Virus record (IMG/VR): IMGVR_UViG_3300045521_000059 | Direction: 5' to 3' (one strand) | Length of the DNA stretch: 64,000 nucleotides | Source: a virus | The notes under the pieces: model-generated | What the model saw: the letters and a program-made list of their open reading frames with translations, nothing else | What the model was told of the DNA's origin: nothing | Database searches by the model: none | Shown: piece by piece, positions 13,367 to 22,015 of the stretch | Layout: each line of letters begins with the position of its first letter | How positions within the stretch are numbered: position 1 is the first letter of the stretch | Program-made: the position numbers and the translations under genes

Positions 13367-13456
13367 TCGAACTGACCAAATCGAACCAACTAATGCTGAT
13401 TGATTGTTTCATTACTATTCCATATTTTGAAGCATGAAAACTACGAGTTTGAGCTT

Positions 13457-14272
13457 ATGACTAAAAGAACCGAAGAAGACGGCCGTTTATTCCCATCCAT
13501 TAAGTGGGATCACGGATGGTCATTATCGATCCAGGCCGACAAGTACGGATATCAATGTAGCCCAAAACGAAAACTGGATACATTGGAGGATTACGAAACC
13601 GTCGAGGTAAAAATAGACGGGCCGCATGGCACTTACGTTGATCCACACACAATGCAGCTATTACCACATGTATTGGATAAGTTCCCAAAACTTACAAGTG
13701 ACAGCGGACCTTCCATCGGCGGAAATCTCACTTGGGACGATGTTGATGTCGTCAAACAAGCAATCTTGCTGGCCTCCCTCAGCCCGAATGACGGAGTTCC
13801 TTCAGGAGCAATTGGATGGTCGTGTAGGGAAGTTTATCACGGGACATCGAATGAAAATGCGGAAGACATCCTGAATTACGGTATCAAACCATCTATTGGA
13901 ACAGGCTATTTTGGACGCGCATTTTATGTGGCTGACGATGTGGAACTGGCAATCTCAAACTATGCGGAATTTTCAGATGACGAAAATGGTGGAGCCGTTA
14001 TCGTCACCACAATCAAAGAAGGGGCCTTGATACTCGACTTGAGAAATCATAAGGACAATCAAAAATGGATAGAAAGCGGGCTAGTGTCTATCATCGGTAG
14101 AGACGATTTCGATCTGCAGGCCCGAAAGAGAGGAATCGATGGCGTTTATGATCGATCAGTCGGAGGATTAGCCATTTTTAATGCAGCAATTCTAACGAAA
14201 CCACATCTCATAAATAATACTGCATCCAGCGATGTTGAGATCGACGCCAACAGTCCGGAAATAAAAATGTAA
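13457..14272 (+). CDS. two-domain protein with C-terminal PARP-like ADP-ribosyltransferase motif
   Basis: VYHGTS...ILNYGI...GTGYFGRAFYVADD (H-Y ART signature). Confidence 0.6.
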   Translation: MTKRTEEDGRLFPSIKWDHGWSLSIQADKYGYQCSPKRKLDTLEDYETVEVKIDGPHGTYVDPHTMQLLPHVLDKFPKLTSDSGPSIGGNLTWDDVDVVKQAILLASLSPNDGVPSGAIGWSCREVYHGTSNENAEDILNYGIKPSIGTGYFGRAFYVADDVELAISNYAEFSDDENGGAVIVTTIKEGALILDLRNHKDNQKWIESGLVSIIGRDDFDLQARKRGIDGVYDRSVGGLAIFNAAILTKPHLINNTASSDVEIDANSPEIKM

Positions 14273-14343: not shown

Positions 14344-14436
14344 ATGTTTATTCAGTCATCCCAACAGCAATCAAGACAATCGAGTTCATCAAGCTCGAAT
14401 GCGTTGATGTGCGCGGTGACTGACCTAAATATCTGA
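14344..14436 (+). CDS. leader peptide 2 (30 aa; Ser/Gln run) MFIQSSQQQSRQSSSSSSNALMCAVTDLNI
   Basis: GGAG RBS; 14 of codons 4-18 are Ser or Gln; not in the ORF track. Confidence 0.82.
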   Translation: MFIQSSQQQSRQSSSSSSNALMCAVTDLNI

Positions 14437-14463
14437 CCTCCATATCAGATCAAAAGGTTTCAG

Positions 14464-14488
14464 AACCCGCCTAAAAGGCGGGTTTTTT
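14464..14488 (+). terminator. attenuator terminator upstream of array 2
   Basis: AACCCGCC-TAAAA-GGCGGGTT-TTTT, ending 6 nt before the first tRNA. Confidence 0.9.
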
Positions 14489-14494
14489 ATGTGT

Positions 14495-14586
14495 GGAAAC
14501 ATGGCTGAGAGGCTTAAAGCAGCGGTTTGCTAAACCGTCAGGGAGGTAAAATGCCCTCGGGAGTTCGAATCTCCCTGTTTCCGCCA
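14495..14586 (+). tRNA. tRNA-Ser(GCT)
   Basis: GCGGT-TTGCTAA-ACCGT; long variable arm; G73-CCA. Confidence 0.95.
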
Positions 14587-14628: not shown

Positions 14629-14718
14629 GGAAAGGTGGCCGAGTGGTTGATGGCTCTGGTCTTGAAAACCAGCGTGCGGGAAACCGTACCGTGGGTTCGA
14701 ATCCCACCCTTTCCGCCA
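14629..14718 (+). tRNA. tRNA-Ser(TGA)
   Basis: CTGGT-CTTGAAA-ACCAG; CCA. Confidence 0.95.
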
Positions 14719-14753
14719 ATATATTGAGTTTGTTTATTTATGGGAGATGGGCC

Positions 14754-14957
14754 ATGACAGTACATGAATTAAATGCTCCGGCTGATGTCGTAGAAGCAAC
14801 TGTCATGGCCCTAGTAAAAACCCATAATAACAAGGCTCAGCAAGCAAAAGAACGATCTGCCTTACGCGGATGGTTCGTCGGTCAGACGATGAAGAAGCTT
14901 AACGGTGCAGTAAGTCGTCACGTAGTGCAAGAAGCAGTATTTAAAGCGCTGCAATAA
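14754..14957 (+). CDS. stand-alone GatB C-terminal/YqeY-like domain (67 aa)
   Basis: LRGWFVGQTMKKLNG matches the GatB tail motif GFFVGQVMK; GGGAG RBS. Confidence 0.65.
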   Translation: MTVHELNAPADVVEATVMALVKTHNNKAQQAKERSALRGWFVGQTMKKLNGAVSRHVVQEAVFKALQ

Positions 14958-14992
14958 TTATAGGAGATAATGGCTATAATAGCCAAATAATT

Positions 14993-15082
14993 GGAAAGAT
15001 GGCAGAGCCAGGTTGAATGCACTCGCCTCGAAAGCGAGCAAGCCGAAAGGCTTCGAGAGTTCAAATCTCTCTCTTTCCGCCA
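14993..15082 (+). tRNA. tRNA-Ser(CGA)
   Basis: CTCGC-CTCGAAA-GCGAG; CCA. Confidence 0.95.
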
Positions 15083-15088
15083 GAATAC

Positions 15089-15162
15089 TGGGGATTAGTT
15101 TAAAGGTAGAACAGCGGACTCTGAATCCGTTAGTCTTGGTTCGAATCCAGGATGCCCAGCCA
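15089..15162 (+). tRNA. tRNA-Gln(CTG)
   Basis: GCGGA-CTCTGAA-TCCGT; U1-A72; CCA. Confidence 0.93.
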
Positions 15163-15179
15163 GAATTTAAAAAATATAC

Positions 15180-15254
15180 TGGGACGTCGCCAAGCGGTAA
15201 GGCATCGGTTTTTGGTACCGACATTCGGAGGTTCGAATCCTCCCGTCCCAGCCA
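15180..15254 (+). tRNA. tRNA-Gln(TTG)
   Basis: TCGGT-TTTTGGT-ACCGA; CCA. Confidence 0.95.
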
Positions 15255-15280: not shown

Positions 15281-15368
15281 GGAACCGTGGCAGAGTGGTC
15301 TAATGCACTCGCTTGGAAAGCGAGCAGGCCGAAAGGTCTCAGAAGTTCGAATCTTCTCGGTTCCGCCA
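15281..15368 (+). tRNA. tRNA-Ser(GGA)
   Basis: CTCGC-TTGGAAA-GCGAG; CCA. Confidence 0.95.
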
Positions 15369-15393: not shown

Positions 15394-15633
15394 ATGAGCA
15401 ATATGCCAATCAATATCAAAGAACACATTACTGCAGGCCCGTGCAAATTAGTTTGCGCGCGAGCAGATAATCTTTGGTATAAAACTGCTCTTGGCTTTGA
15501 ATTCCCTGTGCCGTTTTCTGATATGGGCGACGCCACGTTTGAGGCAGAAGAAAAAGGCATGATGCTTATGCGCTATATTAGAAAACACAACGAATTAATC
15601 ACAGCTGCGCGACAACAACAAAACGTCGCATAA
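15394..15633 (+). CDS. small phage-type hypothetical protein inside array 2, ending QQQNVA
   Basis: GAGGA RBS; LWYKT..GFEFPVP.SD.GDATF...MRYIRKH pattern recalled from phage proteins. Confidence 0.7.
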   Translation: MSNMPINIKEHITAGPCKLVCARADNLWYKTALGFEFPVPFSDMGDATFEAEEKGMMLMRYIRKHNELITAARQQQNVA

Positions 15634-15668: not shown

Positions 15669-15743
15669 TGCCGGGTCGTCTAATGGTAGGACATGAGCCT
15701 TTGAAGTTACATAATGCGCGTTCGAGTCGCGCCCCGGCATCCA
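15669..15743 (+). tRNA. tRNA-Gln(TTG)-like, bulged anticodon stem, U73
   Basis: TGCCGGG/CCCGGCA; loop CTTTGAA; T-arm GCGCG-TTCGAGT-CGCGC; CCA. Confidence 0.8.
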
Positions 15744-21808: not shown

Positions 21809-22015
21809 GTGGAAGTTAAGGTTCGCGACAATCAGATCGAAAAGGCAATCAGAGTTCTTAAGCGTAAGATGCAGACAGAAGGAATTTTCCGTGAACTGCG
21901 GAAGCGTGAGTACTATGAATCACCTTCGGAAAAGAGACGTCGCGAAAAGAACGAGGCGGTCAGACGATATCAGCGTGAACGTCGCAAGCAGGATGAAGCG
22001 GACCTTCGCCGCTAA
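21809..22015 (+). CDS. rpsU: 30S ribosomal protein bS21
   Basis: [41 protein letters not shown]. Confidence 0.93.

Follow-up and report, generated by a model that had tools for sequence, protein, structure and literature searches.

A gene of 67 codons embedded between tRNA genes in the 64-kb stretch of DNA that we analysed (hereinafter the window) codes for the tail domain, and only the tail domain, of an alphaproteobacterial-type GatB. The product (P0001) lacks the catalytic cradle and the helical domains of GatB; it is of the GatB type rather than the YqeY type, and it is not an enzyme. The ORF is a genuine gene under purifying selection. As a function for it we tentatively favor a weak, trans-acting tRNA-elbow factor that would tune or ease the entry of new tRNA-Gln into the GluRS/GatCAB route, a reading that we regard as possible and hold with reserve. 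What is new here is the setting, namely a gene embedded between tRNA genes in an apparently attenuator-controlled operon on a ~1-Mb replicon. Already known were stand-alone GatB/YqeY-domain phage proteins in the databases and tail-only genes in published rhizobiophage genomes; our literature search found no paper on such a tail-only mini-protein.

The gene lies in a tRNA array preceded by a leader, the features of which are as follows (window coordinates, strand, feature, basis):

14344–14436, plus strand: Ser/Gln-rich leader ORF of 30 codons (ORF list; residues 5–18 are S or Q except for one R)
14462–14486, plus strand: intrinsic terminator of the leader (11-bp stem, then a T run)
14495–14586, plus strand: tRNA-Ser(GCU) (ARAGORN, Rfam RF00005)
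14629–14718, plus strand: tRNA-Ser(UGA), ending 35 nt before the tail ORF (ARAGORN, Rfam)
14742–14747, plus strand: Shine-Dalgarno sequence GGGAGA, 6 nt 5′ of the ATG
14754–14957, plus strand: tail-only gene, 67 aa, P0001 (translation of the ORF)
14971–14985, plus strand: small hairpin between the stop codon of the tail gene and the next tRNA (folding)
14993–15082, plus strand: tRNA-Ser(CGA), starting 35 nt after the tail ORF (ARAGORN, Rfam)
15089–15162, plus strand: tRNA-Gln(CUG), with U1-A72 and an encoded CCA (ARAGORN, Rfam)
15180–15254, plus strand: tRNA-Gln(UUG), with U1-A72 and an encoded CCA (ARAGORN, Rfam)
15281–15368, plus strand: tRNA-Ser(GGA) (ARAGORN, Rfam)
15394–15633, plus strand: second protein gene of the operon, 79 aa (ORF list; no Pfam match; 50 related clusters)
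15669–15743, plus strand: tRNA-Gln(UUG), the last gene of the array (ARAGORN, Rfam)

The order of the array is hence Ser, Ser, tail ORF, Ser, Gln, Gln, Ser, 79-aa ORF, Gln. An earlier note made from the sequence alone had placed the gene inside a Ser/Gln array with three tRNA-Gln genes, and this is borne out (tRNA-Gln at 15089, 15180, and 15669), the immediate neighbors of the tail ORF being tRNA-Ser genes and not tRNA-Gln genes. Apart from the leader terminator, no strong terminator-like site lies in the array or upstream of it, and the one further terminator-like site falls inside tRNA-Gln(CUG). Since neither a promoter nor a terminator was found between the tail ORF and the flanking tRNAs, the tail gene is probably on one transcript with the seven Ser/Gln tRNAs. 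The operon appears to be under the control of a leader-peptide attenuator and to be induced by slow decoding of Ser/Gln codons, and the tail protein is probably made from this attenuator-controlled transcript. The spacers between the tail ORF and the tRNAs measure 33–35 nt in five close lineages. An Rfam scan found no RNA family overlapping the tail ORF. The hairpin that follows it has folding energies of −6.5 to −9.9 kcal/mol in five lineages, with z-scores of only −1.3 to −2.2, and its stem is altered on both sides between lineages (GGCUAU/AUAGCC versus GGCCU/AGGCC); possibly it serves as a 3′ stabilizer of an excised mRNA.

Protein genes co-transcribed in tRNA operons are familiar from the thrU-tyrU-glyT-thrT-tufB and tyrT-tpr operons of Escherichia coli. 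The likeness to these lies in an mRNA that shares a tRNA precursor and is freed by tRNA processing. Unlike them, the operon in the window carries its ORF between tRNAs rather than at the operon end, the ORF encodes a tRNA-recognition domain, and the whole is apparently gated by a leader-peptide attenuator.

We took the ATG as the start codon, and not the TTG at 14724 chosen by the gene caller, because the Shine-Dalgarno sequence is kept and indels occur further upstream: GGGAGA is retained in five close lineages (it differs in L008), whereas the stretch 5′ of it and of the ATG carries single-base indels between lineages. The 77-aa form that would begin at the TTG is unlikely, a Shine-Dalgarno sequence being present only before the ATG. 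Orthologs of the tail gene at 85, 75, 72, and 70% identity are each exactly 67 aa long, and one at ~52% identity has 69 aa; all of these hold the same slot, with tRNA-Ser(CGA) and tRNA-Gln(CUG) following. The slot is shared by the window, L002, L003–L007, L116, and L008; length and place of the gene are kept in at least six diverged lineages. Pairwise Nei-Gojobori comparisons of the orthologs gave dN/dS values of 0.19–0.41, with dS up to 0.94. The identical 67-aa protein is recorded in 162 blocks of public assemblies, of which 43 have contigs >1 Mb.

The dN/dS values and the constant length, together with the GatB signature residues kept across 33–85% identity and the persistence of independent stand-alone tails in unrelated phages and elements, point to selection on the tail protein itself. 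For the same reasons we consider it very improbable that the protein is jobless cargo, i.e., the captured 3′ end of a gatB gene in a permissive slot of an operon that tolerates or needs some small translated ORF. Such a slot would nevertheless agree with what is seen in two more distant sisters, L134 (a 1.16-Mb NCBI contig) and L135 (a 1.43-Mb JGI contig), which share the Ser/Gln array and the 79-aa gene. In these, the position between tRNA-Ser(GCU) and tRNA-Ser(CGA) is taken not by the tail but by an unrelated protein of 70–71 aa (P0079, L134:4402-4617; P0080, L135:2503-2715; 44% identical to each other, with no Pfam family). The second small ORF of the operon (79 aa), which is also of unknown family, would fit this picture as well.

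Sequence profile searches place P0001 with the C-terminus of GatB. Residues 11–66 match positions 92–148 of the 148-position Pfam profile PF02637 (GatB_Yqey) with a marginal score of 28.5 bits (E=1.6e-6), the cut-off being 27 bits; P0011 (45.1 bits) and P0022 (35.1 bits), both relatives, exceed it by a clear margin. The full PF02637 domain (helical plus tail regions, positions 1–148) is not present, 67 aa leaving no room for the helical domain. The best NCBIfam match is to GatB (NF004015, E=6.9e-8), a GlnRS/YqeY fusion model is matched with E=1e-4, and the NCBIfam matches to P0001 always fall at the extreme C-termini of the models. A profile of the family recovers Aquifex GatB (3h0l_B 417–474, E=7e-11), the GlnRS-YqeY extension of Deinococcus radiodurans (2hz7 793–850, E=1e-10), and Thermotoga maritima GatB (421–480). 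YqeY proper (PF09424) gave no match to P0001 even at E≤10, and its two-domain architecture of ~148 aa is absent. Against PHROGs, P0001 gave weak matches only (E=0.012 and 0.1), and its phage relatives are without a PHROG.

The earlier note had reported a match to the GatB C-terminal motif and had called the protein YqeY-like. The motif (GWFVGQTMK) is indeed present, the HMM search that it proposed does return GatB_Yqey above the cut-off, and the fold matches described below are to GatB; of the YqeY-like label, the assignment to the GatB C-terminal tail stands, with the GatB-specific helix α14 kept, and the affiliation to YqeY in the sense of PF09424 does not. We also considered a decayed or split gatB, and this was ruled out: full-length Hyphomicrobiales GatB proteins match the window solely at 14790–14948 (40–45% identity; GatB residues 438–489 for L025 or 459–508 for L033), no further gatB-like sequence occurs in the 64-kb window, and the scan of ~40 window ORFs recovered no match to GatB_N or amidase.

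An AF2 model of P0001 (19 sequences; pLDDT 85.5), as the earlier note had also suggested obtaining, shows four helices (residues 10–23, 25–33, 35–48, and 55–66), and in the PDB it is closest in fold to GatB chains (9a6e_A, TMq 0.78, rmsd 1.4 Å; 3ip4_B, TMq 0.74, rmsd 1.6 Å), followed by yeast and human GlnRS with their GatB-like tRNA-binding domains. The E-values of the structural searches are poor only because the domain is short. In Staphylococcus aureus the GatB tail (residues 412–475) comprises helices α13, α15, and α16 plus the GatB-specific α14, and carries a Lys-rich KxGKxK motif and a hydrophobic pocket made of V449, M452, G457, A459, and P461 (PMC2811023). The pocket was docked on the D-loop of the tRNA, which the tail reads, and deletion of the GatB C-terminus abolishes tRNA binding (PMC2811023); the role of the tail as a binder of the tRNA elbow in GatCAB, asserted in the earlier note, agrees with this published work.

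The AF2 model contains both the α13/α15/α16 bundle and α14, which together define the GatB tail structurally. At the pocket positions P0001 has V42, M46, G51, V53, and R55, of which three are identical, one is conservative, and one is changed (A459 is replaced by V53 and P461 by R55; in the alignment V42 falls on S. aureus V448, next to the V449 of the published pocket). V42, M46, K47, and G51 are among the invariant or near-invariant residues across 12 stand-alone tails and align with S. aureus GatB V448, M452, K453, and G457, M452 and G457 being part of the published D-loop pocket. The Lys motif reads A-K32-E-R34-S-A, one residue shorter and with two basic residues left. The same shortened version is found in Hyphomicrobiales GatB (AKAKP and AKEKP; QAKAKPxL and QAKEKPxL), and the K-A-x-Q-A-K-x-x-x-x-L stretch has the spacing and wording seen there.

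Compared with the GatB tails of known structure (S. aureus 412–475, 3IP4; Aquifex, 3H0L; T. maritima, 3AL0), P0001 displays the same fold (TMq 0.74–0.78, rmsd 1.4–1.6 Å), a profile match over the whole domain, the GxFVGQxMK core, α14, and the V/M/G of the pocket. It differs from them in being a lone domain, with neither cradle nor helical domain and neither GatA nor GatC as partner, and in a Lys motif reduced to K..R, one shorter as in alphaproteobacterial GatB. It also evolves much faster than cellular GatB tails, as seen from its long branches. The stand-alone YqeY proteins (PF09424; Bacillus subtilis 1NG6) are likewise non-enzymatic relatives of the GatB C-terminus. They are, however, two-domain proteins of ~148 aa with a C-domain that lacks α14 and the Lys-rich insert (PMC2811023), whereas P0001 is the tail only. 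The extension of D. radiodurans GlnRS (2HZ7), also a tail of the GatB type, has RGGKTA as its version of the Lys motif and is a proven enhancer of tRNA-Gln affinity; it is fused to the synthetase, whereas the P0001 domain is free.

The isolated YqeY domain of D. radiodurans GlnRS gave no shift of tRNA-Gln at 50 µM and was active only in cis (PMC1865053), which speaks against a free binder and, as the homologous domain works only when tethered, raises the alternative that P0001 is a protein-binding adaptor or detachable subunit. The tail would then dock on a protein of the element or the host, to which it would lend elbow recognition or on which it would work tRNA-free; possible partners are a tail-less enzyme elsewhere on the replicon, the neighboring PARP-like enzyme, and the ribosome with its bS21. 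Several observations are in keeping with this. In Pichia complex I, a protein of the GatB/YqeY superfamily acts as a structural bridging subunit (PMC12487887), which gives a precedent for the fold as an adaptor. The N-terminal peptide of P0001, MT..(x)NAP, is invariant in the clade and modeled as disordered, and charge is not conserved: net charge ranges from −1 to +4 among the orthologs, and a shared basic character, which we sought as an indication of RNA binding, was not found. Members of the family occur after an rpoD-like gene and, in Innesvirus phages, between recombination and clamp genes, and several lineages have a PARP-like gene ahead of the array. The classical linkage of yqeY to rpsU in bacteria (PMC1865053, PMC13374519) could be read in the same sense, the element having its own bS21 gene 6.85 kb away; that linkage, however, holds for full-length YqeY (PF09424), which P0001 does not match. 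As the retained pocket residues are the tRNA-facing ones, and as no tail-less gatB occurs within the 64 kb read of the ~1-Mb replicon, we judge an adaptor role unlikely. For a complex of P0001 with itself, the homodimer prediction (two copies, alignment A3) scored 0.30 against a mark of 0.42, a score that counts neither for nor against a dimer.

Relatives elsewhere show how widely such tails stand alone. An exhaustive search of 1.84 billion representative proteins returned 18 matches at E≤0.001, among them several stand-alone tails of 67–75 aa, alphaproteobacterial GatB fragments, and one tandem double tail. The last of these (P0008, L012:866-1219; 117 aa) consists of two GatB tails in tandem and hints at two tails working together. 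Four large matches (P0006, P0010, P0012, and P0014) are SprB/Listeria-Bacteroides surface-repeat proteins that we read as spurious: the top one has 3256 aa with 22 matching stretches, and scores of up to 217 bits arise from the summing of many weak repeat matches, an artefact for short queries. P0011 (L009/L010 8001–8204), a 67-aa protein 43% identical to P0001 in the alignment, is encoded directly after the gene for a 623-aa rpoD-like sigma-70 factor on orphan-gene-rich contigs of ~820 kb, without tRNA genes in its vicinity; its carrier looks like another giant element with the same mini-domain. Other stand-alone tails sit among strings of small orphan genes of the kind that phages carry, none of these tails being near a tRNA gene.

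Among published phages, those encoding GatB-type tails nearly all infect Alphaproteobacteria, their hosts being Rhizobium, Agrobacterium, Ochrobactrum, Bradyrhizobium, and Komagataeibacter. Close counterparts of P0001 are the tail-only genes of the rhizobiophage genus Innesvirus (P10VF_198, L137:2417-2683, 88 aa; RL38J1_194, L138:2384-2671, 95 aa), which likewise code for small stand-alone GatB-type tails on mobile elements of Alphaproteobacteria. P0001 matches the Innesvirus tail with TMq 0.80 and rmsd 0.9, and P10VF_198 is ~26% identical to it in the structural alignment, though missed by tblastn with P0001. The Innesvirus tails are 20–30 residues longer than P0001, and their genes lie between an endonuclease (recombination) gene and a sliding-clamp gene in replication modules without tRNA genes. 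Their annotation as 'aspartyl/glutamyl-tRNA amidotransferase subunit B' is misleading, since these small phage genes encode the non-catalytic tail only. Longer forms of ~150 aa are present in Bradyrhizobium phage BDU-MI-1 and Rhizobium phage RHph_I1_18, the GatB_Yqey gene of the latter lying beside tRNA-Leu, tRNA-Met, and tRNA-Ser genes. IMG/VR contains proteins of 141–234 aa that end in the tail, one of which (L103/L104) is encoded 37 nt before a tRNA-Trp gene.

Among GTDB species genomes, P0001 has its best relatives in the 3′ ends of gatB genes from Hyphomicrobiales and Rhodobacterales (35–51% identity), and in the ESM Atlas there are many GatB_Yqey-only clusters of 65–74 aa, some of which may be fragments. 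A tblastn search of plasmids with P0001 gave no match. A tree of 110 tails gave no donor lineage; in it the mobile tails form long branches apart from the closely clustered GatB tails of cells. As to co-occurrence with tRNA-Gln genes in related elements, which the earlier note had put forward as a check, the gene keeps its slot within the element family down to ~52% identity, with an unrelated ORF in the slot of L134 and L135; beyond the family, RHph_I1_18 and L103/L104 have their tails near tRNA genes, and most other stand-alone tails are not near tRNAs.

That many phage tail genes are far from any tRNA gene implies that the target of the phage tails must be a host component, and this is one ground for a second alternative, in which P0001 would be a decoy or dominant-negative factor. 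The free tail would compete with the host GatB tail, or with another reader of the elbow, for tRNA-Gln and tRNA-Asn, such that host transamidation would be damped or redirected to the advantage of the element. P0001 does copy one domain of a host enzyme without its catalytic parts, and the inhibitors that mobile elements encode are commonly built in this way. The recurrence of GatB-type tails in phages of Alphaproteobacteria would fit too, these hosts making their Gln-tRNA mostly through GatCAB. Blocking the synthesis of Gln-tRNA and Asn-tRNA would, however, starve the element's own translation as well, and it fits poorly with an operon that is apparently induced by slow Ser/Gln decoding and supplies three tRNA-Gln genes. 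Moreover, as the isolated homologous domain had no measurable tRNA affinity (PMC1865053), such competition would need very high levels of the protein. We accordingly regard a decoy as doubtful.

In the tRNA-elbow factor reading that we tentatively favor, the mRNA for the tail would be cut from the tRNA precursor by normal tRNA end-processing, and each time the attenuator permitted read-through, the tail protein would be produced along with the seven tRNAs. The free tail would then dock weakly, and in a concentration-dependent manner, on the corner formed by the D-loop and T-loop of tRNA-Gln-type tRNAs, using the surface of GatB that is kept in V42, M46, K47, and G51. This docking would tune the passage of a burst of new, poorly modified tRNA-Gln through the non-discriminating GluRS and the GatCAB of the host; with respect to poor modification, it was with unmodified tRNA-Gln transcripts that the homologous YqeY domain made the greatest difference (PMC1865053). 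We lean toward an escort or helper rather than an inhibitor, because the operon is apparently on when Ser/Gln decoding is slow and an inhibitor would worsen the shortage.

The earlier note had put forward, as hypotheses, a protective or chaperone function toward tRNA-Gln and a modulation of the host's GatCAB. For a role on tRNA we count the probable co-transcription with three tRNA-Gln genes that have U1-A72, the synteny down to ~52% identity, and the other mobile elements with GatB_Yqey genes beside tRNAs (RHph_I1_18 and L103/L104). Against an elbow factor we count the variable charge, the two changed pocket positions, and the reduced Lys motif, as well as the tRNA-Ser flanks, the slot swap in L134 and L135, and the location of most stand-alone tails away from tRNAs. 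That the protein is a demand-induced elbow factor with which a giant mobile replicon feeds its own tRNA-Gln to the host GluRS/GatCAB pathway, or hides it from that pathway, strikes us as decidedly improbable. Were it true, a mobile element would be tuning tRNA-dependent amino-acid synthesis with a 67-residue piece of a host enzyme, a piece expressed on one transcript with the tRNAs that it binds and controlled by an attenuator that senses codons.

For about twenty years no function has been assigned to the free-standing relatives of the GatB C-terminus, YqeY included, and they recur in phages, often beside tRNA genes. P0001 provides a small test system for them, in the form of a 67-residue domain under selection with seven candidate tRNA ligands on what is probably the same transcript. 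Simple binding and transamidation assays would be meaningful here, since a single domain is involved, its candidate ligands are probably co-transcribed with it, and the operon seemingly responds to the speed of Ser/Gln decoding. Should the domain prove inert on tRNA, a protein-adaptor role for the fold would be indicated, as in yeast complex I.

The window matches a JGI contig of 1,002,202 bp and belongs to a replicon family of 0.4–1.4 Mb that is absent from GTDB species genomes; searches for near-identical DNA in phage and plasmid collections returned tRNA-sized matches only. Judging from the relatives of the tail and from the tRNA matches, the host is presumably an alphaproteobacterium dependent on GatCAB; GyrB is 54–56% identical to that of three Hyphomicrobiales genomes, a comparison made with no outgroups and therefore uninformative on host placement. 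The window, with a GC content of 40–50%, mixes housekeeping-type genes (gyrA, gyrB, and those for class Ib RNR, TrpRS, a ClpB-like ATPase, LolA, an M15 peptidase, and two DNA methylases) with an integrase gene and many ORFs without a Pfam family. A bS21 (rpsU-like) gene of 68 aa lies at 21809–22015 on the plus strand, downstream of the tail gene, and S21 genes are also found near the array in L002 (8547–8753) and L134 (9881–10084, minus strand). Directly upstream of the leader is the PARP-like ADP-ribosyltransferase gene (13400–14272, plus strand), which is kept in that position in L003 and L005. Elsewhere in the window, a gene for an ADP-ribosylglycohydrolase (53288–54454, minus strand) is paired divergently with one for an RtcB RNA ligase (54584–56029, plus strand); together with the PARP-like gene, these two may form a tRNA modification and repair set.
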